This document shows, in pieces, positions 31,411-56,644 of a stretch of 64,000 nt of DNA (positions are counted from its first letter, which is position 1; every line of letters starts with the position of its first letter). Made by a program: the position numbers and the translations under genes. Source of the DNA: Clostridium sp. CAG:508. Lineage in GTDB: Bacteria; Bacillota; Clostridia; Lachnospirales; Lachnospiraceae. The notes beneath the pieces were generated by a model, which was given only the letters and a program-made list of their open reading frames with translations, did no database searches and had not been told where the DNA came from. The stretch covers positions 5,959-69,958 of the forward strand of contig CAVJLL010000005.1 of NCBI GenBank assembly GCA_963650385.1. The letters run 5' to 3'.

Positions 31411-31524
31411 GATGATCCGTCCTCCTCATTCTATACCGCGGTATATCCTCCGCATTGATCCGACAGCGGTTCAGAGCCATGCAGATCTGCAGCAAAAAGC
31501 CCTGAGCGATTCCTGTATCCGTTG

Positions 31525-31530
31525 ATTATA
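31525..31530 (-). promoter_or_regulatory. Candidate -10 box (TATAAT) for ilvE
   Basis: A perfect TATAAT on the minus strand about 115 nt upstream of the ilvE ATG. I see no convincing -35. Confidence 0.3.
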
Positions 31531-31615
31531 AAGCGCTCGTCCGCATTTTTCCAGATATGATAGGTTCCTTTTATACGCCCTTTTATATTTTTTCGGTATA
31601 GTCCATTTTCATTTA

Positions 31616-31648
31616 TTGAATACCAACTCGTATGTTTCATGTTACAAT
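31616..31648 (+). promoter_or_regulatory. Candidate promoter of the precursor gene (extended -10 TGTTACAAT; possible -35 TTGAAT at a poor 21-nt spacing)
   Basis: TGtTACAAT at 31640-31648 lies in the AT-rich 350-nt ilvE/precursor intergenic region, about 110 nt upstream of the ATG. Confidence 0.35.
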
Positions 31649-31759
31649 GCAGATATCTTTCCGAACGTTTCAGGCACTGTGCACCAGATGTTGTCTTCCG
31701 ATGTGTTTATACCGGACGTTCATCAATCTGATTGACGCACTGCCAGAAAGGAGTTTGAT

Positions 31760-32713
31760 ATGAAATGGACGCAAAAGGAATTGGAGGAGCTCTACCAGAA
31801 GGTTAACCATGCATGTTCGACAGACCCCGAATTCCGAAACAGATTTATAAAGGATCCCAAATCCGCAATGGAGGAGATCGCCGGAGCTCCCCTTCCGGAT
31901 GATTTCCAGCTGCCGCTGATCGAGGCAGACAGCAGCTATCAGGCCTCTTACTGTGTTCCTGAATTCTCATCCGGTGAACTGGATATCCGGAAATTGCAGA
32001 GCGTATATGGCGGTGCCGGGGAGGATCAGAGTGCTCCTGCCGATTCATCCGGCACCGGTCCCAGTGATCCGCAATCTGCAATCTCTTTTCTTCTGATCTT
32101 TTCAGCCTGTGGTGCAGCAATCTCCGTGGGTCCTTGCGGTGGGGATGCCTGCGGAGCCGCTGCCTGCCCGGCAGATGCATGTGGCGGCAAGGCATGTGCT
32201 GCCGCCGCATGCGGCGGCTTTGCCTGTGCAGGCAATGCACAGGCCGTAGAAGGATGCGGCTCGCATATGGGTGTAGCCGAGGCGTCAGTCGTAGCCGGGT
32301 GCGGCGTGGCAGCATGCACCTCTGATGCCGCCTGGCTCGCTGCATGCGGATACGATGTCTTCTGTGTCGGTGCAGCTTGCGGTGCCAAAGTTTCCGCTGC
32401 GTCCTTCGCCTGTGCCGGTGACTTATGCGGTGCACATGGCTGCGGAGCAGATGCGCTCTGCGGCCTAGCAGTCTGCGCCGCCGATGCTACAGGTGTTAAA
32501 GTTGCGGATTTCGGAGGAGCCTGCGGCGCTAATGTCTGCGGCGCAAAATTAGGCTGCATGCCTGATTCATGCGGTGCAAACTATACGGGAACGAACATTG
32601 GCTGCAACGCCGATGTATGCGGTGCACACGGCTGCGGAGCAGCAGCGAGTGAAGGAGGCAGTGATGGCAGTGATGGCGGCGCTGACAATGCCGTCGACAG
32701 CATTGTCAGCTAG
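31760..32713 (+). CDS. RiPP precursor candidate: NHLP-type leader (aa 1-85, ends ...LQSVYGG) plus 232-aa Gly/Ala/Cys-rich core with 26 Cys
   Basis: Strong RBS (AAAGGAG, then 7 nt to the ATG). The leader MKWTQKELEELYQKVNHACSTDPEFRNRFIKDPKSAMEEIAGAPLPDDFQLPLIE...SGELDIRKLQSVYGG matches the nitrile-hydratase-like leader pattern as I remember it (xDPxFRxxLxxDPKxAxxE..G..LP...GG). Core Cys span residues 117-292 (nt 32108-32635), and 15 of the 25 inter-Cys gaps are exactly 4 residues. It is convergent with the maturase/export operon. Confidence 0.8.
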   Translation: MKWTQKELEELYQKVNHACSTDPEFRNRFIKDPKSAMEEIAGAPLPDDFQLPLIEADSSYQASYCVPEFSSGELDIRKLQSVYGGAGEDQSAPADSSGTGPSDPQSAISFLLIFSACGAAISVGPCGGDACGAAACPADACGGKACAAAACGGFACAGNAQAVEGCGSHMGVAEASVVAGCGVAACTSDAAWLAACGYDVFCVGAACGAKVSAASFACAGDLCGAHGCGADALCGLAVCAADATGVKVADFGGACGANVCGAKLGCMPDSCGANYTGTNIGCNADVCGAHGCGAAASEGGSDGSDGGADNAVDSIVS

Positions 32714-32742
32714 TTCTCCGTCCTGATAAGAAAAGTGTTTAT

Positions 32743-32780
32743 TAAAAAGAGTCAGCCTCCTCGGCTGACTCTTTCCTTTT
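32743..32780. terminator. Bidirectional intrinsic terminator between the precursor gene and the giant gene
   Basis: TTAAAAAGAGTCAGCC-TCCTC-GGCTGACTCTTTCCTTTT, a 10-bp stem with an A-run on one side and a T-run on the other. Confidence 0.8.
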
Positions 32781-35700
32781 AACCTGCTTTTCTCCTTCTC
32801 TGCCTGTACCAGGCATATAAGCCCATCAAAGAGCCCGCGCTGAAAATCAGCCACATCCAAGATCTGCTTTCATCACCGGTTTCCTGAATCGCAGGACCTT
32901 TTGAGACACTGTCTGCGTTCTGTGCATCGAGGGAAATTACATCTGCATTCCGATTTAATATGAATTTCCTGATGCCCTTCACCTGTCCGTCTGCCGATCC
33001 ATATCCGCCGACATCTCCAACGCTGTGCTTGTACAATAGCGTCCCGCAGCCGCAGTTCAATCCGTCTCCGGTATCCTGTTTGTAAAACAGAACTTCAATT
33101 CCGCCCAGCTCTCCGTCACTGCTGCGGCCGTATGCCACGGTATACACACCATATTCATCGGTCGCCTGCAGTCCGCACAGAATGCGGTACCGGTATCCCT
33201 GTGCGATTTCGACCCGCACACGATCTCCCGGCTCCAGGCTCGTCTGATCTGCGATCTCCGCTCCCGTATCCGCCCAATACAGCTTCAGCGCATTTTCATC
33301 CAATTCTCCTATGGTATGAAGGATCCGAATGGTTGCCGTGCTGCCGTCTGCGCTGATCTCCGGGTCTCCCAGCAATATGTGATCTCCGAATGCAAATACA
33401 GTCTGATCCGAGAACACGGCGTTGTACCCCTTTGCTGCCTGAATGGTCACGGTGCTCACGTATTGCCTGCCTTCACGGAACTCTGCATCAGGCAGCAGAA
33501 TCGTCTCCATTCCGGAGGCGGCATCATACTGACTCCAGCTCACGGAATAGGTGTACCTTCCGCCCGTTACGGATGTCAGATATGTCTGCAGCAAATTGTT
33601 CTGAACCTTGCTGTCCAATTTAGAGAGCGACCCTGAAGCCCAGCCATCTCCCACCGGAATTCCTCCCGCCTGCGCAATATAGTATTCCAGATACGCATCT
33701 CCCAAAATGTAATTCTTAACGAGCTGTTTGCCTGTCCCGGCTGCCGCACTTGCGCTTCCGGATGAATGCGTGTCTGCATTCTGCCCAGAATCCCTGCTTT
33801 GCCGTTTCACTGCAGCAATGGCATGCTGATACAGTTGGTTCTCACAACCGCAGCCGTCGCTGTCCGCTTCTGTGATAACCATGAGCTCAATATGTGACCA
33901 GCTGCGTCCGCCGGAGCTTCCCCGGACTACGCGGAATATTTTCTTTCCATCCGCGGTTGTTTCGCCGGTATCGATGAGTCCGCCCATAATGTATACACTG
34001 TATCCATCCGCAGCAGAAAGAGTGATTCGATCGTTTGCCTTCAGCTCCTCCTCGTAAGGAATGATCTTTCCGGTATCTGCACGTCGCAGGACAACAATAC
34101 TGCGCACAGGCTCCGTCACCGGGAGCTTATGGAGAATTTTAATCGTTGCTGTCTTCCCGTCGTCACTGATCTGAGGTGTCCCCACCAGTGTGTGGTTCGC
34201 AGCGATGAATTCTGTATTCTGCAGGAACACATGCTGATACTCGTCCAGCGCTGTAAATGTCACTGTGCTGACGTACTGCTGCCCGGCAATGAAGTAACCG
34301 TCATCGTCAAGCGGCTGCTCGCTCTTCGTTTGTTCATCGTATCCCGTCCACTTTACATTTACGGTCATGGATCCCGACAGCATTTTGTTCAGAAGCTTTT
34401 CCAGCAGATTGTCCTTTACTCTTCCGTATACACCTCTGTATGAACCGTTCTTCCATCCATCTCCTGTCGGAATTCCGCAGCCGTTTACCGCAAATTGCCG
34501 CATTACCTTCTCATTCAGATTGAAGTGACGAATTGCCGCAGTATTAAGGCACGCCTTCCATGTGTAGAGATAGGATCCGCAGCCGCACGGAGCGTCTGAA
34601 GCCCCGGCGCTTCCCGTTTCCCTCGGCACAACGGAAATTTCAATCTGCCCGGATGCGCCTTCACCGGATGTGTCCTTCTTCACCGTGTAGATGCGGCAGG
34701 TTTTCCCCTTATAGGGAATGGTGTCCGTCGTAGCCGCCAGTCCGTTTACGATCTGAGCATTCTTCACACTGCCATTGATCCAGATGATAACCTCATCACC
34801 TGCATAGAGGATCTCATCCTTTCCCAGTTCTGTCACTTCCTTTGTATTGTCATCTACCCTGTACAGCGTCGGTTTCTCTGTTTCTTTAAGATTTCCTGTC
34901 CTGTGCGTCACCGTGAGTACGGCAGTTTTCCCGTCGGTGCTGAGCTCAACATCCTCCTCTTTTATGTCATGCTGATAAATGGTAAACTCGGTTTCCTTTG
35001 TAAATAACGACTTGAATCCAGTATTAATCTTAATCTGCAGCCTGCAGCGATAGTCCGTATCCGCCTCGAAATGGTCATCCGGCTTCACTGCAACCCATGT
35101 TCCTTTTTCCTCACTGTCATCCGGCACCCATTTCTGCCATTCGCTGATGCTGTGTGTGTACAGCTTATCATCTAACTTCGTGTTAAACAGGCTGTCCAGG
35201 GCCTTCGCCCACTCTTCAGACACCTCTTTTGCTGTACACGTCTTCGTTTTAGTGCTCTCCCATCCGCCGTTCCACACAGGAATGGTGCCAAAGGAATCCG
35301 CCAGTGTGCTCATGTCGTTTGCTGTCAATGCATACGAAGAGATCTGATCGGGGTTTACCGCCGCAATCGCATGCTGATACAGCAGGTTCTCACAGCCGCA
35401 GCCATCGCTGCCGGCCTTCGGGATAACCGTAAGTGCAATCTGTGACAGCGTCTTTCCGTCTGAGCCTTCCCGAACCACGCGGTATATCTTCTTGCCCTCC
35501 GCGGTCACTTCACCGGTATCAGCAAGTCCGGATATAATCGATACACTGTATCCCTCCTCTGCCGAAACGGTAATCCGGTCCTTCACCTCCAGTTCTTCCT
35601 TATAAGGAATGCTTTTTCCGGTATCTGCATGCTGCAGAGTGACGATTTTATGCAGTGATTTCACCGCCGGAAGCGTGTGGAGAATCTTGATCTCCGCGGT

Positions 35701-38700
35701 TGTTCCGTCTTCACTAATCTCCGGCTCTCCAATCAGTGTGTGGTTAGCTGCAGTAAATTCTGCATTTTGCAGAAAAATGTGCTGATACTTTTCCAACAGC
35801 GTAAATGTCACTGTACTGATATACTGGTGCCCGGCAATAAAGCAGTCGTCATCCGTAAGCGGCCGCTCGCTCTTCGTCTGCTCATCGTATTCCGTCCATT
35901 TCACCTTTACGGTCATGGCTTCCTTCAGCAGGCTGCTCAGGAACGTTTCCAGCTGATTGTCCTTTACCTTTCCGTATTCTTCACTGTACGAACCGTCTTC
36001 CTCTCTTGCCGAAATTCCGGAATTCTTCTCTGCAAACTGCTGCATTTTCTCTGCAGAAAAATCCATCCGATGAATTGCTGCAACATCGGTGCGCGCCTTC
36101 CATGTGTAGAGATAGGATCCGCAGCCGCACGGAGCTTCTGAAGTCCCGGCGTCCCCAGTTTCCTTCGGAACAACAGAAATTTCAATCTGCCCGGACGCGC
36201 TTTCACCGGCTGTGTCCTTCTTCACCGCATAGACACTGTATTTGATTCCCTCATAGGTAATGGTCTCCTTCGTACCGGTCAGGCCGCTTACGATCTGGCA
36301 GCTCTTCGTATTGCCGTTGACCCGGATGATCACCTTATCTTCCGCATAGAGGACATCATCCTCCCCCAGCTCCGTCACTGCCTTTGTTTTGTCATCCACC
36401 CTGTACAGCGTCGGCTTCTCTGTTTCTCTAAGATTTCCTGTCCTGTGCGTCACCGTGAGTACGGCGGTTTTCCCGTCGGCACTGAGCTCAATGTCCGCGT
36501 CATCTATGTCGTGATGGTATATGGAAAACTCCGTTTCCTTTGTAAATAATGACTTGGAATCCGCGTTGATTTTAATCTGCAGCCTGCAGCGATACTCTGT
36601 ATCCGCCTCGAAATGATCATCCGGATTTACTGCAACCCATGTTCCTTTTTCCTCACTGTCATCCGGCACCCATTTCTGCCATTCGCTGATGCTGTGTGTG
36701 TACAGCTTATCATCCAGCTTCGTGTTAAACAGGCTGTCCAGGGCCTTCGCCCACTCTTCAGACACCTCTTCTGCTGTACATGTCTTCGATTTGGTGCTTT
36801 CCCATCCGCCGTTCCACACAGGAATGGTGCCGAAGGAGTCGGCCAATGTGCTCATGTCATTCGCTGTCACGGTATACGAGGAGATCTGATCGGGATTTAC
36901 CTCCGCTATCGCATGCAGATACAGCAGATTCTCGCAGCCGCAGCTGTCGGTGCCGGCATCCGGAATAACCGCAAGCTCAATCTGTGACAGCATCGTTCCG
37001 GCTGTGCTTTGCCGAACCACGCGGTATATTTCTTTTCCGTCCTCGGTTTTCTCTCCAGTATCAACAAGCCCATCCACGATACACACATTGTATCCGTCCT
37101 CTGCCGAAACGGTGATTCTGTCTTTTACCTCCAGTTTTTCCTCGTAAGGAATGTTCTTTCCGGTATCTGCATGCTGCAGAGTGACAATTTCGCTCACCTG
37201 CTTCTTCACTGCCGGAAGCTTATGAACAACAACAATTGTTGCGGTTTGTCCGTCCTCACTGACCGAAATCTCAGGTCTCACCAACTGACCAATCCACGGG
37301 CTCGAACTATATGTTGAAAGCGTGTGGTTTGCCACTTTAAACACTGTATCCTGCAGGAAGATATGCTTATACTCTTTCAGCAGCGTAAATGTCACTGTGC
37401 TGACGTATTGGTGTCCGGCATAAAAATAGTCATTGTCGCGCAGTTCCCGCTTTATATGCGTTCCTTCCTCCAGCTCTGCCCATTTGACCGTTACTGTCAT
37501 GGCTCCCTTCAGCTTATCGTTCAGGAAGTTTTGCAGCTGGTTATCCTTTACCTGTCCGTATCCTTCACGCTCCGAGCCGCCTATTGCCTGAATCCCGCGG
37601 CTGTTTTCTGTGAACTGCTGCAACATTTCCTCGCCAAGCTCCAGCTTATGAATCGCTTCAATATCCATGCAGGCCTTCCAAGTATAGAGAAAAGACTCAC
37701 AGCCGCAGGTATAGAGATTACTCCCCTCCTCAATGGCCGTTGCCTTCGGCATGACTGCAATTTCAACCTGATCGGATGTGCCTTCACCGGATGTCGTCTT
37801 TTTCACCCGATAAACGGGGTAGTTGGTTTCCTTATAGGTGACGGTGTCCTTCGTTTCTACCAGTCCGCTTACGATCCGGCATCCCTGCAGATTTCCCTTT
37901 GTCAGTACGATGACCTCATCACCTGCATAAAGCGTGTCATTTATACTGTCCACTTCGTCTGTTACTTGCTTTTCGCCGTCATACGTCTCCACCACCCTGT
38001 ACAGCGTCGGTGTTACATCTTCAAGGGAAGGAAGGCCGGTCCTGTGATAGACCTTAATGGTTGCTGTCTTTCCATCACTTGTAAGATCTACCTTTACCGT
38101 GTTGTGCCCGGAAATGGAAAATTTCGTTCCTGAGGTGAACACTGCATCGTAATCATCATTGATTTTAATCTGTATTTCGCAGCTGTATTCCGTATCATCT
38201 TCAAAATGGTCATCCGGCCCCAGATCGACCCACGATCCCTGTACCAGATCCGGCCCCCATTTCTTCCATCCGCTTATGCTGTGCGAGTAGAGCTTGTTGT
38301 TAAACAGACTGTCCAATGCCCTTTTCCATTGTGCAGACACTTCCTCTGTCGTACATTGCCTCACCTTGGTGCTCTTCCATCCCTTACTCCACATCGGAAT
38401 TCCGCCAAGATTAACAGCAAATGCGTACATATCATTCGCTGATATCGTATACGAAGGGATCTGGTAGGTTGACGCTTCCTCTTCCGTTGTTTTCCGGATC
38501 AGTGCATAGATTCTCTTATCCTTTTCTACGTTTCCTTTCCCCTGGACCCATTCCGTATAATGGCAAACGCATTGCAGCACATAGTAATGCTGCATGGTCA
38601 ATCCGGCCGTATCCATGGCATACGTATAGGTTCCCCCGCGCGGTTCATACGTTGTGACCCCTTCTCTGTTCGGATTCGGCTGCACATCCTTAAAGACCTC

Positions 38701-40917: not shown

Positions 40918-40958
40918 TCGATGCTTCCCCTGTTGTTCATTTCCGCGATACCGCTGCC

Positions 40959-42353
40959 CTATGCCCGGCAAAGATACCCACGCCAGTACAGCTCCTGCAG
41001 CAGATTCAAAACCCTGTCTGTCCCCGCTGCTCCCAGATTCAACCCTCTTAATACGTTTCCCGGCTCCTGCGGATGCTGAAGCTGCTGCATGGCCTGCAGC
41101 AGGACCGGATGCGCATCCATGTAGTAGCCCGCATTGTCCGCCAGGAGCACAATTTGCTTTTTCCCCGTCCCGGTGCTGTTCTCCTCCGGAAACCACTTCG
41201 TCTCCGTCAGTCTTTCTCCAACCAGCATGCGTACATTGCGGTTGATCTGCACCGGTCTCCACAACGGAAGGCTTCCGAAGGCATGACTTCGGAACAGCTG
41301 CGTCAGGCCGCTCCGAAAGCTCTCCGCATCATGAAACTCGGCGGTCCCCCAGACGCGATACCCCTTCGGAAACTGCTCCGACGGGAGCTCCGGCTCTATA
41401 AATTCCATCAGGCCGTCCACCATATTCACGCGCACGCCTGCAATGCAGCTGATGCTGTATCGCAGGAGCTTTTCCTTCGGCAGCTTCTTTCCCTGAGCGG
41501 CTCTGCCCGATTCCGAATACCGGTTCACCGACTCCGGATTATTGCTTAAAACCTCCACATGCTCCAGCTCCATCGGCGTAAACAGATCCATCAGCTGCCG
41601 GAAATGCTGCAGCGATGTAGCCGACATCCGATAAGACACCCGCTGCCGCAGGCAGTCCGGTCCAATCCACGACAGAAGGCTTTTGGTTCTGTCCGGGTCA
41701 CGCTGCGCCGCTGCCGAAGTTGTCTGCGGAACGGTTCCGTATATGTCCCGCATATCCGCCAGAAATTTCTCATAGTCCGGATTGTCCATCGGCTCTGTCC
41801 CAAAGTAGCACGGGCAGCTATCCGCAATGTCCCCCAGCAGTTCTCTGGTAATGGTCAGGACATCCCGCCACAGCTGCCGGTGCTCTTTGGTGTAAAGGTA
41901 ATTCTCCTGCCATGGCTTCGCCTGAAATCCGCAGAACGGACACTGGACCCTGCAGCCGCTGGATAATTCGAACGCCGCCGGAAAGTAATGTATGTTCGGA
42001 TGCTCACGCATCGCTGCGCTTTCCAGAAAGCAACGGTTCCGCACGATATTGGCATAACGCCAGAGGCTCTCTGCCGCATACCGGTCCCGCGCCACCAGCC
42101 GCTCTTCCTCTCTCACGATCGCCCGGCTCCGCGCCGTATATTCCTTCAGAAACGGATTGGCTGCAATTTCTTCTTCCGCCGGATTTCCCCGGCAAATCTG
42201 ATGAATTGCATCCAGTACGGTCTCCGCATCCAGCGCAATCCCGGATTTCTTAAAATGTGCTGCGATCTCGTCCGCGGCATGCAGGCGGAAGTCAGGATCC
42301 GAGTAAAACCACTCCATCATCCGCTTGCATTCAGCATATTCGCGTGCTGTCAT
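40959..42353 (-). CDS. Radical SAM enzyme without SPASM domain; possibly a PoyD/OspD-like RiPP amino-acid epimerase
   Basis: CRVQCPFC (C-x3-C-x2-C) at nt 41931-41954, followed by a FGTEPMDNP SAM-region-like motif. The N-terminal AECKRMMEWFYSDPDFR resembles the N-termini of proteusin epimerases as I remember them. ATGA overlap with the upstream SPASM gene. Confidence 0.6.
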   Translation of the reverse strand: MTAREYAECKRMMEWFYSDPDFRLHAADEIAAHFKKSGIALDAETVLDAIHQICRGNPAEEEIAANPFLKEYTARSRAIVREEERLVARDRYAAESLWRYANIVRNRCFLESAAMREHPNIHYFPAAFELSSGCRVQCPFCGFQAKPWQENYLYTKEHRQLWRDVLTITRELLGDIADSCPCYFGTEPMDNPDYEKFLADMRDIYGTVPQTTSAAAQRDPDRTKSLLSWIGPDCLRQRVSYRMSATSLQHFRQLMDLFTPMELEHVEVLSNNPESVNRYSESGRAAQGKKLPKEKLLRYSISCIAGVRVNMVDGLMEFIEPELPSEQFPKGYRVWGTAEFHDAESFRSGLTQLFRSHAFGSLPLWRPVQINRNVRMLVGERLTETKWFPEENSTGTGKKQIVLLADNAGYYMDAHPVLLQAMQQLQHPQEPGNVLRGLNLGAAGTDRVLNLLQELYWRGYLCRA

Positions 42354-43723
42354 TTCTTCTCTCCGCCCTCGGCAGCTGCCTTCTGTGCTTGTGCCGCAGC
42401 CTGAGCGGCCTGTCGACGCTGCTGCTCCTGTTTGGCTTCATAGTGGAGCTCCAGCAGATCCTCCAGATTATCCCGGAAATAGGAACACGAGCTATGCTTC
42501 ACGTCCGTATGCAGATTTTTCTGCCGGATTCTGTGACATCCTCCGTCACAAATCGGGAAACAGAAGCACTCCTTACACTCTTGCGAATCCAGATAGGAGC
42601 ATCCCTCCATTCCTTCTGCCAGAAGTGCCATATTCCAATTGTCAAAACGATCAATGGATCCGATGACCTTTTCCTTAAGCCCTACGTCATCCCAACACTT
42701 ATACAGCTCTCCGTCCGGTCCGACAACATAGGCATTGCGGCAGTTCAGGGTACATCCCGGTCCCTTTTTCTGCGGGAACAGCGGAAGCGCCGTGATTCTC
42801 TCCTCTCTTGCCATTCTGGATATGAACTCTCCCTGCGCCTTCGGCTCAAAGAAGCAGCTGCAGTCCGGATGATCATCTCCCTTTACAAAGCCGGGATATA
42901 CCGTAATTCTCTTCCCGAAATCCTTTGCATACCGTTTCCGAATCATGCGGAATACATCTGCATACTCGTCCTCATTGCGGCTGTCTACATTCACGCGAAT
43001 ATGAATCATTCCCTTGAAATTCGTGGCAAGAATCCGATCAATATTATCCAGGATCACATCGTAGGTCGGTGCTCCGTTCTTTAAATATCTTCTCCCGTCG
43101 TGCGTCTCCTTCCTGCCGTCCAGCGTAATCTGAAGGTATCCGATGTGCAGATCGTTTAATTTTGCAATTTTGTCATCCGTCATCAGGTAGCCATTTGTGA
43201 TCATACTGGCAGTATAGGTTTTATCCATATCCTTCAGGCGTTTATCAATACTGAGAATCCGGTCAAAGGCCAGAAGCGGCTCTCCTCCGTACCAGATGAT
43301 CGACAGATTGTCTGCCTTGAAGCTCTTAATAAAGCGGATCAGCTTATCTTCCACCTCCTGGGTCATCGGTTTTCCTGTGCGGTTTCCCTCAAAGCAATAG
43401 CTGCAGTCAAAATTGCAGGCTCTGGTGACTGCAAGCGTCAGTGTAAGAGTATTCCCCGCATAACGCCGCGTCAGATTTCTCATCTTGATAATGTTGTACA
43501 GATCGTCGTCCCGATGGTCTTCTACCAGATAGCCCAGCGCACGCAGCCGCATGTACAGCATGGGGATCTTCGAATAATCGTATCCCTCCGGATCCTGCAT
43601 AATCCCCCGGATAATCTCCACTTCCTCATCCGGTACCTTCATAAAGGCGCGCGATGCCGAATGGAACAGCAGCCATCCATTCCTCTGTGATTCAAACAAC
43701 TTGCTGTATCTTGACCATTTCAT
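42350..43723 (-). CDS. Radical SAM/SPASM-domain peptide maturase (sacti-/ranthipeptide-type thioether synthase candidate)
   Basis: CNFDCSYC at nt 43394-43417, WYGGEPLL, and a C-terminal auxiliary-cluster Cys pattern (CTLNC...YKCWDD...CSYLDSQECKECFCFPICDGGCHRIR). About 95 aa precede the cluster motif, which may form a peptide-recognition region. AAGGAGAG RBS. Confidence 0.85.
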   Translation of the reverse strand: MKWSRYSKLFESQRNGWLLFHSASRAFMKVPDEEVEIIRGIMQDPEGYDYSKIPMLYMRLRALGYLVEDHRDDDLYNIIKMRNLTRRYAGNTLTLTLAVTRACNFDCSYCFEGNRTGKPMTQEVEDKLIRFIKSFKADNLSIIWYGGEPLLAFDRILSIDKRLKDMDKTYTASMITNGYLMTDDKIAKLNDLHIGYLQITLDGRKETHDGRRYLKNGAPTYDVILDNIDRILATNFKGMIHIRVNVDSRNEDEYADVFRMIRKRYAKDFGKRITVYPGFVKGDDHPDCSCFFEPKAQGEFISRMAREERITALPLFPQKKGPGCTLNCRNAYVVGPDGELYKCWDDVGLKEKVIGSIDRFDNWNMALLAEGMEGCSYLDSQECKECFCFPICDGGCHRIRQKNLHTDVKHSSCSYFRDNLEDLLELHYEAKQEQQRRQAAQAAAQAQKAAAEGGEKK

Positions 43724-43738
43724 CCTTACTCTCCTTTT

Positions 43739-45910
43739 TTATCCGGTCACCGTCTGGTAGCCGGCAAGTCTGTAAAACAATCCCTTCTGCTCCATCAGTT
43801 CTTTATAGCTTCCAATCTCTGCAATGCTGCCCTTTTCAAGTACAACAATGCGGTCACAGTGCACGACTGTTGACAACCGGTGTGCCACCACAATGCGTGT
43901 TGCATTATACGTATTCAGGCTCTGACAGATCTTCTCCTGCGATACATTGTCCAGTGCACTGGTTGCCTCATCAAACAGAAGAACGGTCGGCTGTCCGACC
44001 AGCGCCCTGGCGATCAGAATCCGCTGTCTTTCTCCGCCCGACAGAGTTCTGCCCTGCTCTGATACGAAGGTTTCCAGCCCCATCGGCATTTTCTCCACAA
44101 CATCGGTCAGCTGCGAATCCTCCACTGCCTTCTGAATTTCCTCCGGTGCAGCCTTGGGACAGGTCACCGTAATGTTGCGGCGGATCGTGCCGGAGAAGAG
44201 TCGTCCCTCCTGCAGCACCACGCCCAGCTTCTTTCTGAATTCCGGCAGGCAGAGCCTCTCCAGCGAAATTCCATCGTAATAGATCTGTCCCTTCAGCGGG
44301 GTTTCAAATCCCAGCAGCAGCCGAAGCAATGTGGATTTTCCGCAGCCGGTCTCACCGACAATTCCAATATACTCTCCCGGCTTTATATGAAGGGAAATAT
44401 CCTTCAATACCATTTCCCCCTTTTTTTCATAGCAGAAGCTCACATGGGAAAGCTCAATATCTCCCTTCAGCGCTTTCGGGATATCCCCTTCCAGACTGCT
44501 CTCCGGCTCCATCCGCAGCAGCTCGGATGACTCCACCAGTGTGGGGATCGAGGATACGATATCCATCCCCGCATTGGCCACACTGCACATTGCGGCTGTA
44601 AACGCCGTCAATGCTGTCAAAAAGCCCATAAATATGCCAATATTGATGTCCAGGTTCTGTGTCGCATAGATCCAGTACAGCACCAGCATAGACAAGGCAC
44701 TTCCGGATGTACTCAGGGCAGAGGAAAGTCTTTTGTTCCAGGCAATACTCTGATCCGCAAGCTCCGCCCCCGAAGCCAGCTCCATGTGTTCACATACTAC
44801 GTCGTCCTCCGCTCCTGCCGTTCGAATGGATTCAATTCCCTGCAGAGACTGATAGAGGAACGATCGCTGCCGACCGATGGCTCTTGATTTGTCCTGCTGC
44901 GCCCTTCGGTCCAGAAAGCCTATCCCTATCGTAATGGCAACATTCAAAACCACAAATCCGGAAGAAATATGACTCAGGAGCGAGGAATACTGATGCATCT
45001 TCCAGATGTAGATCAGCGAAAAGGCACCGCGAAGGAGGATCTGCATCGCATTCTGAAATGCACTCATATAGGTTGAATTCATTTTCTGAATTCGATAGGC
45101 CTGCTCTGCACTCTCCTTCTCACGAAAGCACTTCTCCGGGAGATGGAAAATGTGATCATAGATTGCCCCCTGCAGTGCATAGCGAACGATACTGGTAATG
45201 CGATAGTTTTCCAACGCGCCCGTTACTGTAAAACACAGGTTTGCCGCCATGCATGAAAGAAGAACAACTCCAATGCCAATCAGCTGATCCACATCGCCGG
45301 TTGGTATAATCTCATCGAAGATCAGCTGATTCAATGTTGCAAGCTGTACCGAGATCAGTGTGACAATTCCCGTACACCCTATGCAGAACAGGAAATCAGA
45401 CGGGCGAAAGGCCTTCAATGCCAATCTGAAAATATCCTGGAAGGTTACCTTTTTCGCAGGAAAGGTCCAATGGAACTCTACGGCCGTATTTTCCAGCTCC
45501 TCCAGCTCTTTCTTAGAAGCCGTATGCGAGCTTTTGTCTGCCGGATCAATCAATGTCACAGTTCCCCTGTGTCCCGGTTTACAGATCAGATATTCAGGGC
45601 TTCCCCTTTTCCTGCACAGAATGGGATAGGTCAGCATCCGGTTCCAGTTCTTATCCAGTGTTACGGATCTGGAAATGAACCCGGAAACTCTGGCAATGTC
45701 CTCCAGTCCCGCATCCTGCCCGCATGCCTCGCGCACCCGTTCATAAGGTGCAATCGTAATCCCCATCAGCTGACAAAGGTAATTGGCCGCGTCATAAAGC
45801 GAATTGCCGCTCGGCTTCATACGGCTGAACTTACGTTTGGCTTTCTTCTCGAACGTAGATAATATGATATTGCAAGTGCGAGTCTGTACGGTCGTCATAT
45901 TCTCTGACAT
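43739..45910 (-). CDS. NHLP-type bacteriocin export ABC transporter, permease/ATPase subunit (no active peptidase)
   Basis: 723 aa with a 6-TM exporter core, Walker A GETGCGKST, LSGGERQR and LLFDEATS. The N-terminal region lacks a C39 catalytic Cys context. Confidence 0.8.
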   Translation of the reverse strand: MSENMTTVQTRTCNIILSTFEKKAKRKFSRMKPSGNSLYDAANYLCQLMGITIAPYERVREACGQDAGLEDIARVSGFISRSVTLDKNWNRMLTYPILCRKRGSPEYLICKPGHRGTVTLIDPADKSSHTASKKELEELENTAVEFHWTFPAKKVTFQDIFRLALKAFRPSDFLFCIGCTGIVTLISVQLATLNQLIFDEIIPTGDVDQLIGIGVVLLSCMAANLCFTVTGALENYRITSIVRYALQGAIYDHIFHLPEKCFREKESAEQAYRIQKMNSTYMSAFQNAMQILLRGAFSLIYIWKMHQYSSLLSHISSGFVVLNVAITIGIGFLDRRAQQDKSRAIGRQRSFLYQSLQGIESIRTAGAEDDVVCEHMELASGAELADQSIAWNKRLSSALSTSGSALSMLVLYWIYATQNLDINIGIFMGFLTALTAFTAAMCSVANAGMDIVSSIPTLVESSELLRMEPESSLEGDIPKALKGDIELSHVSFCYEKKGEMVLKDISLHIKPGEYIGIVGETGCGKSTLLRLLLGFETPLKGQIYYDGISLERLCLPEFRKKLGVVLQEGRLFSGTIRRNITVTCPKAAPEEIQKAVEDSQLTDVVEKMPMGLETFVSEQGRTLSGGERQRILIARALVGQPTVLLFDEATSALDNVSQEKICQSLNTYNATRIVVAHRLSTVVHCDRIVVLEKGSIAEIGSYKELMEQKGLFYRLAGYQTVTG

Positions 45911-45922
45911 AGCATTCTCCCG

Positions 45923-48103
45923 TTATCCCTCGAGCAGTCTGCGATATTCCCCTTCCTGCTGCAGCAAGTCCTCATGCCTCCCGCATTGAACAATTCTTCC
46001 CCGGTCCATTACCAGAATCAGATCACAGCTGCGGATTGCCGACAGGCGATGTGCCACGATCACGCAGGATATTCCTCTTTCCAGGATATTCCGCATCACC
46101 TTGTCTTCCGTTTCCGGATCCATGGCACTCGTCGCCTCGTCCAGAAGGAGTATGGCAGGCTTTTCCGCCAGAGCTCTTGCGATCTGCAGCTTCTGCCGCT
46201 GGCCGCCGGAAAGATTTGCGGCACCTTCCTTCAACCGATACTCCATTCCGCCCGGCAGTGTATTGACCATGTCATAGGCATCCGCACATTTCAGTGCCTC
46301 CACCATCTCCGCCTCGGATATCTCCTTGCTCCAGAACGTCAGATTCTCACGTATGGTCCCTGCGAAAAAGAATGCACTCTGTCCGACTACAGCAATATTC
46401 TTCTTCAGAAGCTGTGGTGTCATATCCTGTATTCGAATCCCATCATACCGAATTTCACCGCTCTGCGGATATAAAATACCGGCCAATATGCGTACAAGCG
46501 TGCTCTTGCCGCAGCCGGAGGCTCCCGTGATTCCCAGGCAACTCCCCGGCATGAGCCGGAAGCTGAGTTCCTGCAGCACCGGTGCCTGGGTAGTGCGGTA
46601 GGAAAAGGTGATATTGCGAACCTCAATCTCACCCTGCAGCGGCTTTACCGGCTGATTGGCTTCCTCTTCCTTCCGGAAACGGGCATCCTCTTCGGTCCCC
46701 TCGATATCCTCTATGCTGAGCATTTCCGCCTTCAGTGTCTGAATGCTCTGGCTGTAGCCGATCAGTTCGTTCATCGGCTGCGTAAATCCGCCCAGGAGCT
46801 GCACGAAAGCGGTCAGCATGCCTGCGGTAATGCTGCCGTTAATGACCAGTACGCCGCCGATCATCAATACCACAATCTGGAAAATGCCGGAAATAACGGA
46901 CGGAAATGCACTCAGAATCTGCTGCGCCTTTCCCATGTCCTGTTCACTCCCGGTCGTCCCGCAGAAGGCCCCCAGGATGTCACTTGCATAATCTGTCTCT
47001 GCTCCGTTCGCCTTGATGGTGCTGAAGACCGACAAGCCGGCGCATAATAGGCCGGAAAGCCGGTTCTGATCCTGGCGCTGCTTCAGCGCCATTTCGCGAA
47101 GGACCTGCACCGGCAGAAGGCTTAAAACCATGTTCAGCACGGTTCCGAGCACGCCGATTGCCGTCAAGAGCGGACTGTATGTCCACAGCATCAGCAGATA
47201 AAATATCGATTCAAAGACATTCAGCACCGCATCAATCAGCTTATCTGCAAGAAAGCTGTTGATATCACCGTTGTTCTCTACCCGCTGTGACATCTCCCCC
47301 AAATATCTCTGATCAAAAAACGGGATCGGAAGGCGAAATAAATGCCGCAGCAGCTGATAGTCGGTCAGTATATTCAGCTTCAGCTTCAATTTGGCCAGGG
47401 TCGCTGACCGGACCCACCCGAGCACGATCTGCAGAACGTATACTCCCGCAAGGCACGTCAGCAGCAGCACAAGCTGACCGGTTCTGCCATTCATGACGAC
47501 ATGGTCCACATACAGCTGCAGCAGGATTGACATAAAAATGCACGGAAAAACAAGAAGTCCTCCCGCCAGCAGCAGATAGACCACCGTACTCGTCTGTCCC
47601 AAAAGGCGCTCCTGCAGCAGCCGCAGCAGATCGCTGGGCTGTTCTTTTCTCTGGAAGTGCTCCGTTTCTTCGAAGTACAGCACAATGCCGGTAAATTCCC
47701 GGTCCAGCTCCTCCCAGGTGATCTTCCGGTGCCCCCTGGCCGGGTCATTGAGGTATACCCGTTTGCCGCGAATGCCTTCCAGAACCACAAAGTGATTAAA
47801 TCCCCAGTGCAGGATACAGGGCAGCGGAAATTTCCGGAGCTCCTCCACTGATTTGGAAAAGCCATGCCCCTTCATGCCATAGTGCTCTGCCGCCAGAACC
47901 AGGTCTGCTGCACTGCTGCCGTCCCTGGATACTCCGCAGACATACCGCAGCTCCTCCATCGAGACATTGCAGTGATGATATTTCAGAATCATGAGGAGGC
48001 TGGCCGCGCCGCACTCTGCAGCCTCCACCTGAAAGACCTCCGGTGTATGAACCCGCCGCGGTTGTTTTTGTGTATCTGACTTCCGTCGTCTGCTCTTCAC
48101 CAT
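45923..48103 (-). CDS. NHLP-type bacteriocin export ABC transporter with N-terminal C39 peptidase domain
   Basis: 726 aa. The C39 triad context is intact: QVEAAECGAASL (Cys), NHFVVLE (His), LNDPARG (Asp). ABC motifs GASGCGKST, LSGGQRQK and LLLDEATS. TAATG overlap with the upstream adaptor gene. Confidence 0.88.
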   Translation of the reverse strand: MVKSRRRKSDTQKQPRRVHTPEVFQVEAAECGAASLLMILKYHHCNVSMEELRYVCGVSRDGSSAADLVLAAEHYGMKGHGFSKSVEELRKFPLPCILHWGFNHFVVLEGIRGKRVYLNDPARGHRKITWEELDREFTGIVLYFEETEHFQRKEQPSDLLRLLQERLLGQTSTVVYLLLAGGLLVFPCIFMSILLQLYVDHVVMNGRTGQLVLLLTCLAGVYVLQIVLGWVRSATLAKLKLKLNILTDYQLLRHLFRLPIPFFDQRYLGEMSQRVENNGDINSFLADKLIDAVLNVFESIFYLLMLWTYSPLLTAIGVLGTVLNMVLSLLPVQVLREMALKQRQDQNRLSGLLCAGLSVFSTIKANGAETDYASDILGAFCGTTGSEQDMGKAQQILSAFPSVISGIFQIVVLMIGGVLVINGSITAGMLTAFVQLLGGFTQPMNELIGYSQSIQTLKAEMLSIEDIEGTEEDARFRKEEEANQPVKPLQGEIEVRNITFSYRTTQAPVLQELSFRLMPGSCLGITGASGCGKSTLVRILAGILYPQSGEIRYDGIRIQDMTPQLLKKNIAVVGQSAFFFAGTIRENLTFWSKEISEAEMVEALKCADAYDMVNTLPGGMEYRLKEGAANLSGGQRQKLQIARALAEKPAILLLDEATSAMDPETEDKVMRNILERGISCVIVAHRLSAIRSCDLILVMDRGRIVQCGRHEDLLQQEGEYRRLLEG

Positions 48104-48720
48104 TATTCATCCTCAAACAACTGCTCTAATGCAGGAATTCCTACTGCAATCGGACGTTCCTTCGATGTCACAATGGACATGCTCACGAAGGTCCCGTTAT
48201 GAAGCGACAGCGATCCTCCCCTGGGGTTGCTCCAGTAGTATCCGTTTTCCATCTGCGAATCCTCCTGCAGCTTGCAGATCACGGTCATCATCGGTGTATT
48301 GCTCTGCTGATATGCGCGCACCAGGGCATCATTTCCCAGAAGTGACTGCATTTCCTCCTCTGTGGCCGCATAGTCATCCACATAAGAGATAACCCCCTTC
48401 ATATGTCCGTATTTCTGCTGGTTATAGCCGGCCATGTACATGGTCACCTCCATGCCTACCTCAAGCGATTTACCGCTTGTCATCGGCAGAAAGGTTATGA
48501 TCTCCCCCTCGGATGTGACCCCGGGATGATAGATTCCTGTTGCACTGACATTCTCCGTAATCCATCCGGTACACGACCAGACCAGCACGGAAATCACGAT
48601 GATGAAGCCTCCCAGCAGGATCAGCCACATGGGTGCTGAGGTCACTGTAATCATCTTATCCAGCTGCATTACCGTCGAATTCTCATCCGCTTTTTTGCGA
48701 TAGATTCCTTCCATTCCCAT
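48103..48720 (-). CDS. Short HlyD-like secretion adaptor (205 aa)
   Basis: One N-terminal TM helix (MWLILLGGFIIVISVLVW) followed by a beta-rich segment (GMEVTMYMAG...GHMKGVISYVDD). It is the first cistron of the export/maturation operon, with a GGGAGG RBS. It is much shorter than the roughly 400-aa HlyD adaptors I know. Confidence 0.6.
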   Translation of the reverse strand: MGMEGIYRKKADENSTVMQLDKMITVTSAPMWLILLGGFIIVISVLVWSCTGWITENVSATGIYHPGVTSEGEIITFLPMTSGKSLEVGMEVTMYMAGYNQQKYGHMKGVISYVDDYAATEEEMQSLLGNDALVRAYQQSNTPMMTVICKLQEDSQMENGYYWSNPRGGSLSLHNGTFVSMSIVTSKERPIAVGIPALEQLFEDE

Positions 48721-48816: not shown

Positions 48817-49833
48817 TCACCCCACCGGAATCCCCCGCAGCCGCATCGACAGCCGGTGCGCGCGCCGCACCAGGACGGGTGCCGCGGCCAGGATCGTCAG
48901 GTACACCCGGTCCCGGTGCGTCAGGTACGGATTTTCCCGGATGTCGGTGCGGTGCTGCCGCAGATACTCCACCACATTCCGGTAGAATACATTTTCCCTC
49001 TGCATATCCGCAATGGGGACATGCAGCATATAATCCAGCCGCTCGTACAGGCCAAACCGCCGGGCCGCCACCTGGAGCTTGGGATAGCGCGGCACAAGGT
49101 GCTCCTCCACGTAATCCGACGCCTCGATGATCGCAATATAGGCCCTCGAGAACTGCCCCGCGCTGCGGCGCCTTGTCAGACTCCCGCTCCGATGCACGAC
49201 GCGGTAGCCGATCTGCGGCAGATTGTAAATCCCGTCAATCACATCCACGAGGTGCGTCTCCAGGTCGAAATCCTCGCACAGCGCCCCCACCTTAAAGGGA
49301 TGCTCCAGCAGAATCCTCCTGGGAGTCAGCTTCGTACAGAACGACGCATCGCCGGTGTACAGGAGCATGCTCTGAATAAACAGGACCGGCGAGACCAGCA
49401 CCGGCTCTTCCGGGGGCAGCACCGCCGCCGGGAGGGGCCTCCCCGCTTCGTCGATTTCCTCCCGCCCGATCTGGATCTGCACATTGGTATGTCCGGCGAC
49501 CCGCATGGCCTCCATGCCGGCGCGGAGGTGCTCCAGCATATCCGGATAAACAAGGTCATCCGAATCCACAAAGCTGATGTACTCGCCCCTTGCCGCGAGG
49601 ACCCCGGCATTGCGCGCCGCGGACAGACCCTGATTTTCCTGGCTGATGACGCGAATGCGGGGATCACACTTCTCCAGCTCCCAGCACACCTCCAGAGATC
49701 CGTCCGTCGAGCCGTCATTCACCAGCAGAATTTCAAAATCCGGGTCCGTCTGTGCCTGGACGGCCGCCACTGTTTTCCGCAGAAACGGTTCTGAGTTGTA
49801 AACGGGCACTACCACTGAAATCTGTTCGTTCAC
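48817..49833 (-). CDS. Glycosyltransferase family 2
   Basis: ISVVVPVYNSEPFLRKTV...LLVNDGSTDGS...VDSDD. I prefer the GTG start at 49833 (GTGA overlap with the upstream stop, GGAGGAGG RBS) over the track start at 50007. Confidence 0.85.
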   Translation of the reverse strand: MNEQISVVVPVYNSEPFLRKTVAAVQAQTDPDFEILLVNDGSTDGSLEVCWELEKCDPRIRVISQENQGLSAARNAGVLAARGEYISFVDSDDLVYPDMLEHLRAGMEAMRVAGHTNVQIQIGREEIDEAGRPLPAAVLPPEEPVLVSPVLFIQSMLLYTGDASFCTKLTPRRILLEHPFKVGALCEDFDLETHLVDVIDGIYNLPQIGYRVVHRSGSLTRRRSAGQFSRAYIAIIEASDYVEEHLVPRYPKLQVAARRFGLYERLDYMLHVPIADMQRENVFYRNVVEYLRQHRTDIRENPYLTHRDRVYLTILAAAPVLVRRAHRLSMRLRGIPVG

Positions 49834-51131
49834 TGCTCCTCCTCCAGCACCTCCGCCGGTGCACCGGACAGCCGCGCCGCCTTTAAGAACGGCCGGAGCG
49901 AGGGGTCCTGACTCATCGGCCCCTCCGCCGGCAGGTCCCGGTTCAGGCGCCGCACCAGCTGCCGGATTCTGCGCTTGTTCTGTGTCCGCGCCTTCGCCGC
50001 ATCGCACAGAGGCAGAACCTTCTCGCCGAACTCAAGGAACCGCTCCGCCGCCGCATCGGCATTCCATATGGTCTGAATCTTGCGGAACGAGAGCGCCGCA
50101 AACCGCTCACACAGCTCCGTGTCCTCCATCAGGCGCTCCGTCTTGCGCACGAGATCGTCCTCGTCCCCGTCCGCATACACATAGCCGTTCACGCCGTTCT
50201 GAATCAGGTACGGTACCGCGCCTGCCTCCGCCCCGGCGATGGGCGCGCAGCCGCTGTTCATTGCCTCGTTGAGCACGGCGCCCCACCCTTCTCCGTGGTC
50301 ACTCGTCAGAATGAAAATGTCGCTGTGCTCCATGATGTCCCGCACAACCTCCGGGCTGCAGAAGCCATGGAAAATAACGCTCTCCTCCAGGCCGTGCTGC
50401 CTTGCAAAGCGGTGCAGCTCCTCGGCCGTCCCTTCCTGCCCGGCTCCTGCATCGCCGACGATGTGCAGGAGGAACCTCTTCCCGTCCTTCTGCAGACGGT
50501 CGGCCAGGGACAGCACGCGCTCTGCGTGCTTGAACCCGACAAAGCGTCCGGCCCACACCAGCTCGGTCACATCCCTTGCTCCCCGGTGACGGATGGGCGG
50601 CCGCCCGCCCTCGTAGATGCGCAGCGGCGGAAAGTAGCCCCACCGGTATTTTTTCTCCGGAAAGGCGCCGATCAGGCCGTAGTCCGAACCCACGTAGGCC
50701 CCGGCACACAGCAGGTAATAGGCACTCCGCCGGAACCTTGTGAAGCTCCGGTATTTGTCCGCCAGACCTCTGGGGGAGAGTGCCTTCCACTGTCCGTCCT
50801 TATAGATTCTCTCGCTGATCTGGAACACCGGCCGGTGGAGCTTCAGCCTCTGCGCGATCAGCGGCCGCAGCTCCGGAACCCAGCCGACGAGCAAAAGGTC
50901 ACAGGCCATCAGCTCGCGCCTTGCCTCCTTCTGATTCGCGGTCCATTTCAGCACCCAGTCCAGCTCCTCCGACCGGTCCTTCCAGCCCATATCCAGACGC
51001 TCCTGCTCCATTTCCTCCATCTGAACAAAAACAAAGCCGTCCCCCAGCCGCTCGAGCATAGCCTCGCAGAAGGGGATCTGGTGATGGTTGATGTAATTCG
51101 CCGCAAAGGCAACGGTAGGCATTCTGTTCAC
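49830..51131 (-). CDS. Glycosyltransferase family 4 (GT-B, WcaL-like)
   Basis: C-terminal EGWGAVLNEAMNSGCAPIA...NGVNGYVY (E-x7-E region). The start is GTG 51131 (GTGA overlap) or ATG 51122. Confidence 0.82.
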   Translation of the reverse strand: MNRMPTVAFAANYINHHQIPFCEAMLERLGDGFVFVQMEEMEQERLDMGWKDRSEELDWVLKWTANQKEARRELMACDLLLVGWVPELRPLIAQRLKLHRPVFQISERIYKDGQWKALSPRGLADKYRSFTRFRRSAYYLLCAGAYVGSDYGLIGAFPEKKYRWGYFPPLRIYEGGRPPIRHRGARDVTELVWAGRFVGFKHAERVLSLADRLQKDGKRFLLHIVGDAGAGQEGTAEELHRFARQHGLEESVIFHGFCSPEVVRDIMEHSDIFILTSDHGEGWGAVLNEAMNSGCAPIAGAEAGAVPYLIQNGVNGYVYADGDEDDLVRKTERLMEDTELCERFAALSFRKIQTIWNADAAAERFLEFGEKVLPLCDAAKARTQNKRRIRQLVRRLNRDLPAEGPMSQDPSLRPFLKAARLSGAPAEVLEEEQ

Positions 51132-52432: not shown

Positions 52433-52433
52433 A

Positions 52434-53243: not shown

Positions 53244-53256
53244 AATTAACTCCCGT

Positions 53257-53313: not shown

Positions 53314-53315
53314 GA

Positions 53316-54563: not shown

Positions 54564-54571
54564 AGTACCGA

Positions 54572-56591: not shown

Positions 56592-56644
56592 GTTCCTCGT
56601 TTCGTTCTTACTGTCTGCCCCGAAGCCTGAATAAACACCGCGGG

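Follow-up and report, generated by a model that had tools for sequence, protein, structure and literature searches.

A predicted cluster for a very large cysteine-repeat ribosomal peptide in Clostridium sp. CAG:508 and its linkage with a giant caspase-like surface protein

The 64,000-nucleotide (nt) stretch of Clostridium sp. CAG:508 analyzed here (contig CAVJLL010000005.1 of assembly GCA_963650385.1, positions 5,959 to 69,958; hereafter the window, within which all positions are given) carries a full set of genes for making, modifying, cleaving, and exporting a ribosomally made, post-translationally modified peptide (RiPP): a precursor with an NHLP-like leader, two radical S-adenosylmethionine (SAM) enzymes, a C39-peptidase ABC transporter, and the remainder of an exporter. 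A first, sequence-only reading had recognized this set and had drawn attention to a gene for a giant surface protein of peptidase clan CD in the same gene string; both observations have stood, and the giant gene has now been found to recur in 9 contigs from three lineages. It is considered fairly probable that the locus serves the biosynthesis of a ribosomal peptide that is very large and heavily modified, a hybrid of the proteusin and thioether types, and that the giant gene was captured once and subsequently co-inherited with it. Since the same gene block recurs in other genomes, the locus represents more than a chance arrangement.

The gene string and its cysteine-pentad precursor

The adaptor, exporter, enzyme, and giant genes all lie on the minus strand, and the precursor gene alone lies on the plus strand. 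The gene for a short HlyD-like adaptor (48103-48720) overlaps that of the first ABC exporter subunit, ABC1 (45923-48103), at a TAATG junction; 12 nt separate ABC1 from the second subunit, ABC2 (43739-45910), and 15 nt separate ABC2 from the gene for a SPASM-type radical SAM enzyme (42350-43723), which in turn overlaps the second radical SAM gene (40959-42353) at an ATGA junction. A gap of 41 nt, carrying a GGGGAAG ribosome-binding site, then leads to the ATG of the giant gene at 40917. Folding of this gap gave no stable structure, and a promoter/terminator scan found no promoter-like or terminator-like site within it; co-transcription of the giant gene with the enzymes is predicted. The ORF map and the raw sequence thus agree with the gene string, the five junctions, and the gene order originally described.

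The precursor gene (31760-32713) is convergent with the giant gene, whose stop is at 32779, and the bidirectional terminator that the two had been said to have in common is present as a G+C-rich hairpin of 12 bp (32746-32774). The hairpin folds with -27.9 kcal/mol (z = -7.2), none of 200 shuffles folds equally well, and it is bordered by an A-run and a T-run; it was not picked up by a simple terminator scanner. An Rfam search of 29000-50500 returned no RNA family. Position 31411, from which the locus had been counted, is merely the end of the adjacent aminotransferase gene and not the start of the locus.

The precursor is not a short peptide: its open reading frame (ORF), which is preceded by an AAAGGAG ribosome-binding site, encodes 317 amino acids (aa); tblastn found no second copy in the window. 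The NHLP leader model TIGR03793 can be aligned over its full length (positions 3-77 of 77) with residues 9-85, at 33.4 bits (cut-off 50.9; E = 2.9e-8); related precursors score 28.9-31.6 bits with it. The leader (aa 1-85, 31760-32014) ends at a double-glycine (GG) site, LQSVYGG/AG, and is well conserved across 34 family members. It is followed by a 22-aa acidic spacer (aa 86-107, AGEDQSAPADSSGTGPSDPQSA) and by a conserved hydrophobic segment, ISFLLIFSACGAAISVGPC, which begins at aa 108 with ISFLLIFSAC; the spacer and the start of this segment occupy 32015-32107. Family-wide, the segment follows the pattern [IV]S[FV]xLI[VI]SxCxAAxSxGPC, and in some family precursors the GG site directly adjoins it.

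The core (aa 117-292, 32108-32635) holds 26 Cys in 176 aa, and its Cys-Cys intervals measure 5 residues in 15 of 25 cases and 6 residues in 3 of 25. Across the 34 members, the unit is C-[GA]-[GA]-[DNAE]-[AV]; among about 785 intervals, 485 (~61%) are of 5 residues and 162 are of 6, and 314 of the 485 five-residue units have D, N, or E at position C+3, where A, K, and H are also frequent. The protein closes with an acidic, Ser/Gly-rich tail of 25 aa (32636-32710), and the product predicted to remain after GG cleavage would comprise ~230 residues. A protein search with the window precursor gave 27 further members of 185-413 aa, and the family cores measure ~90-300 residues with 7-40 Cys (17-40 in most members found). 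The window precursor scores 29.2 bits with the CefA model NF038108 and so does not pass its cut-off of 30, which the sister precursor P0117 does pass (41.9 bits). Furthermore, genes for such Cys-pentad proteins adjoin the enzyme/exporter set in 8 of 8 distinct related locus types with usable flanks, in varying positions and orientations. C-terminal tails are present in some family precursors, whether the giant gene is present or not; the tail was rejected as a marker of giant-linked loci, given a sister locus (L039; related loci are numbered here with the prefix L) whose 347-aa precursor has a tail and which has no giant gene.

The same block is found in a near-identical strain, represented by L022 (GCA_963640915.1) and L023. 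Over most of the block, the window and L022 differ at ~1% of bases and the enzymes are 99-100% identical; the precursors are 73% identical, with an identical leader (100%) and a core in which 25-34% of bases differ (32100-32700). A second hotspot lies in the giant gene at 39000-39300 (16% of bases differ; ~aa 540-640, just past the head domain described below). The two hotspots suggest allele replacement or diversifying selection. Core hypervariability was not retained as a general trait, however, because the precursors of L029 and L031 are 99% identical with epimerases at 95%. A variable core behind an invariant leader would offer a natural library for studies of enzyme tolerance.

One further member of the precursor family is of unusual build: in P0126 (413 aa, from an 84-kb ENA contig), a single called protein consists of an N-terminal C39 domain followed by an NHLP/Cys-pentad precursor of full length. 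A genuine fusion, a deletion within ABC1, or a gene-calling artifact could each account for it.

Maturation enzymes and exporter

The first radical SAM enzyme (457 aa; 42350-43723, minus strand) is a SPASM peptide maturase with Pfam matches to Radical_SAM and Fer4_12, a CX3CX2C motif (residues 103-110), and all seven Cys of the SPASM motif (C328-x9-G-x4-C343, C383-x2-C386-x5-C392-x3-C396, C413). Its top NCBIfam matches, Clo7bot (TIGR04334, 216 bits) and CefB (NF038107, 214 bits), both have cut-offs of 600, and neither is passed; the maturases of the sister loci score 194-228 bits with these two models. Further matches are to TIGR04463 (185 bits), PapB (NF047865, 121 bits; cut-off 340), CcpM (TIGR04068, 110 bits; cut-off 500), and SCIFF (TIGR03974, 106 bits; cut-off 425), and anSME and other SPASM families are also among them.

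The second enzyme (464 aa; 40959-42353, minus strand) had been correctly described as a radical SAM protein, but its probable identity as a PoyD-type epimerase had been missed. TIGR04517 is the sole family matched (305.8 bits; cut-off 325), and the epimerase of sister locus L039 lies above that cut-off (331.8 bits). Across 93 aligned homologues, the cluster-binding triad C134-x3-C138-x2-C141 and C303 are kept without exception, and these four are the only invariant Cys. PoyD homologues have one further conserved Cys, which serves as H-atom donor (Cys372 in PoyD) (PMC8326336); the pattern of C303 plus the triad, which is a matter of conservation and not of aligned positions, fits this single conserved donor. 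Because the second radical SAM enzyme appears to be of the PoyD type, the locus is proteusin-like.

The export proteins are of the NHLP/NHLM type, as had been claimed. The adaptor (205 aa, one transmembrane helix; 48103-48720, minus strand) aligns only with the end of TIGR03794, over its C-terminal third (positions 290-420 of 421; 107.7 bits, cut-off 156.2), and since the same ~200-aa form is present in every related locus, it is not a truncation. ABC1 (726 aa; 45923-48103, minus strand) carries a C39 peptidase domain (Peptidase_C39, E = 3e-36), and its best match is TIGR03796 (NHLM_micro_ABC1; 807.2 bits, cut-off 853.3). ABC2 (723 aa; 43739-45910, minus strand) has ABC_tran and ABC_membrane domains and no peptidase domain, and its best match is TIGR03797 (NHLM_micro_ABC2; 604.6 bits, cut-off 709.4). 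For all three proteins, the NHLM models are the best match by a wide margin, and all three scores lie below the equivalog cut-offs. Adaptor, C39-ABC, and second ABC genes form one string in the same locus as an NHLP-type precursor with a GG site, which is the three-gene arrangement of the NHLM exporter; the short adaptor and the lower scores set the present system apart from it. The NHLM exporter was reportedly associated with NHLP and Nif11 precursors by Haft, Basu and Mitchell in 2010.

In the pathway proposed from these parts, the 317-aa precursor would bind the enzymes through its NHLP-like leader. The SPASM maturase would then act iteratively on ~26 Cys pentads (C-G/A-G/A-D/N/x-A), most likely to give intramolecular thioether rings between the Cys sulfur and a nearby residue, and the PoyD-type epimerase would turn some L-residues into D-residues. 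The C39 domain of ABC1 would cut after YGG, and ABC1, ABC2, and the short adaptor would secrete a product of ~230 residues made up of the acidic spacer, the hydrophobic segment, a stapled Cys-repeat body, and the acidic tail. Finally, the giant protein would be a surface-tethered peptidase that trims the exported product, for example by removing the spacer after the GG cut. With moderate confidence, by analogy, its most likely role would be that of an extracellular peptidase acting on the exported product, like NisP, CylA, and LicP. These three are subtilisin-type extracellular or surface-anchored lantibiotic leader peptidases.

The giant surface protein and its linkage to the locus

In the related loci, the giant gene keeps its place. 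The epimerases of L001, L027, and L028 are 62% identical to that of the window, and these loci have the same gene order, with a giant homologue of 1589-1640 aa and a convergent precursor of 334 aa. In L029, L031, and L036 (epimerase 50-52% identical), the giant gene (2739-2746 aa) again stands directly after the epimerase gene, and a pair of divergent precursors, of 345 and 351 aa, is found upstream. In total, the giant gene is directly downstream of the epimerase gene in 9 of 9 inspectable contigs from three lineages, at epimerase identities of at least 50%. In the window and L027 lineages, it lies within the cluster, with the enzymes on one side and the precursor on the other, and the epimerase-giant gap of L027 (55 nt) is, as in the window, without a terminator. 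The surroundings of the cluster differ: Transglut_core and SpoIIE genes flank L027, whereas glycosyltransferase and aminotransferase genes flank the window locus; for L029, the comparison of flanks was restricted to the upstream side.

Identity to the window proteins falls from 80% for the SPASM maturase of L027 through 74% for ABC1, 73% for ABC2, 62% for the epimerase, and 60% for the precursor to 47% for the giant; the corresponding values for L029 are 80, 60, 59, 51, 48, and 30%. Thus, the giant is the fastest-evolving member of the cluster in this comparison, yet its position has been kept. In the epimerase tree, the giant-linked loci form one clade (bootstrap 200/200), and the internal topology of a tree of the giant heads is the same, joining the window with L027 and then with L029. 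Since the two trees agree, the giant gene was probably captured once, downstream of the epimerase gene in the ancestor of the clade, and then co-inherited. The persistence of the linkage while comparable flanks changed argues for some selective coupling, although it is not proof, and a functional link between giant and RiPP is plausible.

The giant gene (32779-40917, minus strand) is an ORF of 2712 aa with an ATG start and a signal-peptide-like N terminus, MKKTKLWHRIIAFTLSAGLAFAPIAAA; the L022 orthologue, called independently, has 2709 aa. After the signal-like N terminus come ~160 aa of low complexity, rich in Ser, Glu, and Gly, and then a caspase-like head of clan CD (aa 195-545, 39283-40335) with His278 in YIGHG and Cys320 in LASCFSGG, a dyad conserved in 8 of 8 aligned members. 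The head had been labeled C11; no C11 family is matched at E <= 0.01 in Pfam or NCBIfam, and a marginal match to Peptidase_C14 is found instead, still within clan CD (PF00656, 21.5 bits; cut-off 21.4). PF00656 is also among the precomputed matches of homologues P0001-3 and of the L029 and L031 giants. The structural model of the head is of low confidence (predicted local distance difference test, pLDDT, 53.5; residues 1-80 at 68-89); a fold search with it listed metacaspases (6w8r, 8a53, 4f6p), GSU0716 (3bij), and MALT1 among unrelated matches. GH3 folds at the top of the list were discarded as noise given this pLDDT, and the sequence match of the head to 3bij has E = 0.74. The head family comprises ~32 cluster representatives among 1.84 billion proteins.

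Beyond the head, a beta-rich region of ~250 aa leads to seven homologous beta-sandwich modules of ~245-285 aa (33016-38520), which alternate between types A and B and each end in CGC[EG]xxLY. Self-BLAST for internal repeats gave nothing usable, and the modules were found through the CGC motif and MAFFT alignment; they are 52-81% identical within a type and 21-35% identical between types. An AlphaFold2 model of a module (pLDDT 78; predicted TM-score 0.74) had only weak matches to cadherin, FN3, and Ig-like folds (best E = 0.0066) and gave no functional lead. RiPP-linked giants have 3-7 modules, and other homologues have 0-2. The C-terminal anchor (32782-33015) consists of IQETGDES, a hydrophobic helix, and RQRRRK; it scores 14.7 bits with LPXTG_anchor (TIGR01167; cut-off 15.9), its motif being IQETG without LP, and two relatives are unmatched. 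An xTGD[ED]G motif with helix and basic tail is conserved in the giant subfamily. Read as a design, the protein would be a wall- or membrane-anchored stalk that presents a clan-CD peptidase head away from the cell.

Several results weigh against a cluster of this kind with a co-inherited giant. The sequence-only reading had held that homologous loci without the giant gene would indicate chance adjacency; in the immediate clade, the gene is kept in every inspectable contig, as stated, but four sister loci of like machinery do without it, namely L033 (epimerase 47% identical), L032 (45%, no exporter visible), L037 (42%), and L039, in which SPASM maturase, epimerase, and Cys-pentad precursor and, apart from L032, the exporter are present. 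The giant gene is therefore a clade-specific accessory, outside the core system. In addition, all three giant homologues sampled outside the clade (33-36% identical) stand in non-RiPP contexts, beside feoAB, uvrD, and a 2-hydroxyacid dehydrogenase gene; the RiPP-linked giants are monophyletic in only 130 of 200 bootstraps (65%); and in L029 a strong hairpin followed by UUUGUGU (11465-11569, z = -4.2) lies between the epimerase and giant genes. The window and L027 are without this hairpin, whose role may be that of an attenuator or of a partial terminator. The anchors of the head family are varied (transmembrane helices or repeats of the cell-wall-binding type), as is typical of general surface proteins, and the head model is of the low confidence already given. 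Finally, most hidden Markov model (HMM) scores of the window proteins fall below curated cut-offs, so that these proteins are divergent and outside recognized families, and SPASM enzymes also carry out non-thioether reactions, such as the formation of cyclopropylglycine on repeat precursors (PMC9062424).

Many of these results would fit a giant that is simply a passenger, that is, an ordinary surface protease or adhesin of these Clostridia that became adjacent once and was kept by linkage or block transfer without a role in maturation. This is a possibility to be taken seriously, if not a probable one. Besides the foreign contexts, the sister loci that do without the gene, and the L029 hairpin, it would explain why the giant has its own Sec signal, why its modules resemble generic stalk domains, and why a close relative of the window organism has a giant paralogue beside feoAAB: the FeoB of L025 is 92% identical to that of the window (19401-21539), and in L025 (159-7696) the 1416-aa paralogue P0003 is directly upstream of feoA-feoA-feoB. 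It sits less well with a short-gap adjacency that has been kept down to 50% identity in the epimerase and 30% in the giant, with flanking genes that differ between the window and L027, with the placement of the gene inside the cluster in those two lineages, and with the parallel divergence of the two trees. A shared chromosomal neighborhood was rejected as the cause of the linkage, given that the window, unlike L025, has no giant paralogue near FeoB and that L027 and L026 have 2-hydroxyacid dehydrogenase genes with no more than 32% identity. Lower GC content was likewise discarded as evidence of joint transfer, being weak: the window block is at ~0.50 against flanks of 0.56-0.58, and L027 is without such a contrast. 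At the other extreme, the clade may have recruited a long-stalked, caspase-like surface peptidase as dedicated partner of a stapled, D-residue-containing peptide of ~230 residues, a proposal that we regard as unlikely on present evidence. It is equally doubtful that such a recruit would act in either of the two ways envisaged, with removal of the spacer activating the peptide or with cuts after the Asp or Asn of the pentads releasing small units. If it were true, a recruited clan-CD peptidase would define a new protease class in RiPP maturation, and the RiPP core would extend far beyond the 48-aa core of polytheonamide.

The remaining alternatives concern the peptide itself. The pentads might be modified singly and then cut after Asp or Asn, here by the clan-CD head, to give many small thioether peptides. 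Many clan-CD enzymes do cleave after Asp or Asn, the caspase-like dyad is conserved, D, N, or E stands at C+3 in 314 of 485 units, and multiple small products have been proposed for repeat-motif SPASM precursors (TvgA, PMC9062424). Nevertheless, this multi-core scheme appears very improbable: the sister loci have the pentads but neither the giant nor another obvious protease, C+3 is often A, K, or H, the S1 specificity of the head is unreadable from the poor model, and the conserved hydrophobic N-terminal segment points to a single large product. It is somewhat less improbable, though still quite unlikely, that the SPASM enzyme performs another chemistry, such as anSME-type Cys oxidation, C-C bond formation, or S-alpha-carbon bonds in place of beta/gamma links, with no ranthipeptide-like ladder. 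The SPASM enzymes are chemically diverse (PMC9062424; PMC8326336), the matches to characterized thioether maturases lie far below their cut-offs (PapB, 121 of 340 bits; SCIFF, 106 of 425), and anSME is in the match list; however, the top-scoring relatives are all maturases paired with Cys-rich peptides, and the strict Cys periodicity, in which D, N, or E recurs at a set distance, is reminiscent of the Cys-Asp acceptors of freyrasin and the Cys-Asn acceptors of NxxcA (PMC8326336). That the 317-aa ORF instead codes for a Cys-rich protein of an ordinary kind, such as a metal-binding protein located here by chance, is hardly credible, even with a length far above that of typical RiPP precursors and an NHLP score below the cut-off, because it has a leader-like N terminus with a GG site and because its homologues adjoin the same gene set in all 8 locus types.

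Distribution, neighboring genes, and known systems

A genome scan with the epimerase gave one close locus, and a scan of JGI metagenomes gave distant relatives only, at 30-38% identity. The source names on family members are few and all from Clostridia (Lachnospiraceae and Candidatus Limivicinus). A more distant epimerase relative (38% identity) comes from an Anaerovoracaceae metagenome-assembled genome, and two further distant epimerase loci have rumen-type and Hadza-gut record names. The contig of L001 (CAVAUJ010000024.1) is labeled Succinivibrio sp., a gammaproteobacterium, and its DNA is 83-91% identical to L027; because the matching region of L027 carries a SpoIIE-type phosphatase gene beside the locus, this bin label looks wrong.

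The sister and more distant loci vary in their enzymes. In three of the four sister loci (L032, L037, and L039), a B12 radical SAM enzyme is added; those of L039 and L032 score above the cut-off of TIGR03975, a RiPP C-methyltransferase family, and that of L037 has precomputed Pfam matches to B12-binding and Radical_SAM only. Beyond the divergent precursors of L029 and L031, at 1-114 and 1-110, respectively, stands one more radical SAM gene, whose 361-aa product has a weak Pfam match. Two Lachnospiraceae loci, L005 (9509-12395) and L008 (6945-9801), apparently each have two adjacent PoyD-like epimerase homologues (37-38% identity), which adjoin ABC exporters of 728 and ~855 aa and represent a different architecture of the wider family.

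Elsewhere in the window, an exopolysaccharide-type cluster (48817-59032, minus strand), which includes GT2 and GT1 glycosyltransferases, EpsG, and a priming transferase (Bac_transf), immediately precedes the RiPP operon on the same strand, 96 nt upstream of the adaptor gene, and read-through from it into the operon is possible. In a sortase-pilus locus (10801-16015, minus strand), the sortase (10801-11784) is accompanied by a pilin of the SpaA/GramPos_pilinBB type (11751-13502) and by a tip-like protein with a VWA domain (13592-16015); the sortase might be relevant to the LPXTG-like anchor of the giant. In addition, a 1032-aa protein with EAL and GGDEF domains, for turnover of cyclic-di-GMP, is encoded at 25973-29071 (minus strand), 3.7 kb from the end of the giant gene.

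Each part of the locus has counterparts in known systems. With the proteusins (polytheonamide PoyA/PoyD/PoyB,C; landornamide/OspD, PlpD, AvpD), it has in common an NHLP-like leader and a PoyD-like epimerase with one extra invariant Cys (PMC8326336), and the sister loci also have the PoyB/C-like B12 C-methyltransferase (TIGR03975), although the window locus is without a methyltransferase. In polytheonamide, however, the core has 48 aa, in contrast to ~230 aa here (~90-300 in the family); the present core is built of repeated Cys pentads, the epimerase always has a SPASM maturase as its partner, and the hosts appear to be Clostridia, whereas the known proteusins stem from cyanobacteria and symbionts of sponges. 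A SPASM maturase is likewise combined with a Cys-rich core in ranthipeptides and sactipeptides (freyrasin/PapB, NxxcA, SCIFF/CteB), and the Cys-Asp and Cys-Asn links of freyrasin and NxxcA are like the fixed-offset Asp/Asn found here (PMC8326336). Those peptides have 1-6 cross-links, as compared with at least 26 Cys here, and the present system adds an NHLP-like leader and an epimerase.

The Cys at every fifth residue and the best-scoring maturase models are those of CefA/CefB (NF038108/NF038107) and Clo7bot (TIGR04334). The CefA model covers 65 positions, as opposed to a core of ~230 aa behind an NHLP leader, and the window maturase reaches about one-third of the equivalog cut-off of 600 for CefB and Clo7bot; a literature search found nothing on either family, and they are known as database families without described chemistry. 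NisP, CylA, and LicP resemble the giant in being secreted or anchored proteases encoded in a RiPP cluster, and the giant could finish processing outside the cell, after or instead of the C39 cut, but those three are subtilisin-like and have 300-700 aa, whereas the giant has a clan-CD head on a stalk of 1,800 aa and is absent from the sister loci. In the poly-cyclopropylglycine system TvgA/TvgB, a SPASM enzyme also iterates on a repeated short motif (PMC9062424); there, the motif is TVGG, the bond is C-C, and the gene set is another one, without NHLP leader or epimerase.

In a literature search, neither a family of Cys-pentad NHLP precursors nor a cluster with both a SPASM maturase and a PoyD-type epimerase was found described, though subscription journals were thinly covered and such absence is not proof; the in-silico models of NCBIfam cover the family only in part. 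Every single part is of a known kind, and the novelty lies in how the parts are combined, in the core's size, and in the caspase-like surface protein of the one clade; the ~230-aa Cys-pentad core is arguably the more unusual feature of the locus. If the proposed chemistry holds, a SPASM maturase and a proteusin epimerase would both act on one core, to which the sister loci would add a C-methyltransferase, and the notion of a RiPP would be widened by this family to products the size of proteins. Furthermore, the linked caspase-like protein allows the co-option of a clan-CD peptidase for RiPP processing to be asked about in concrete terms.

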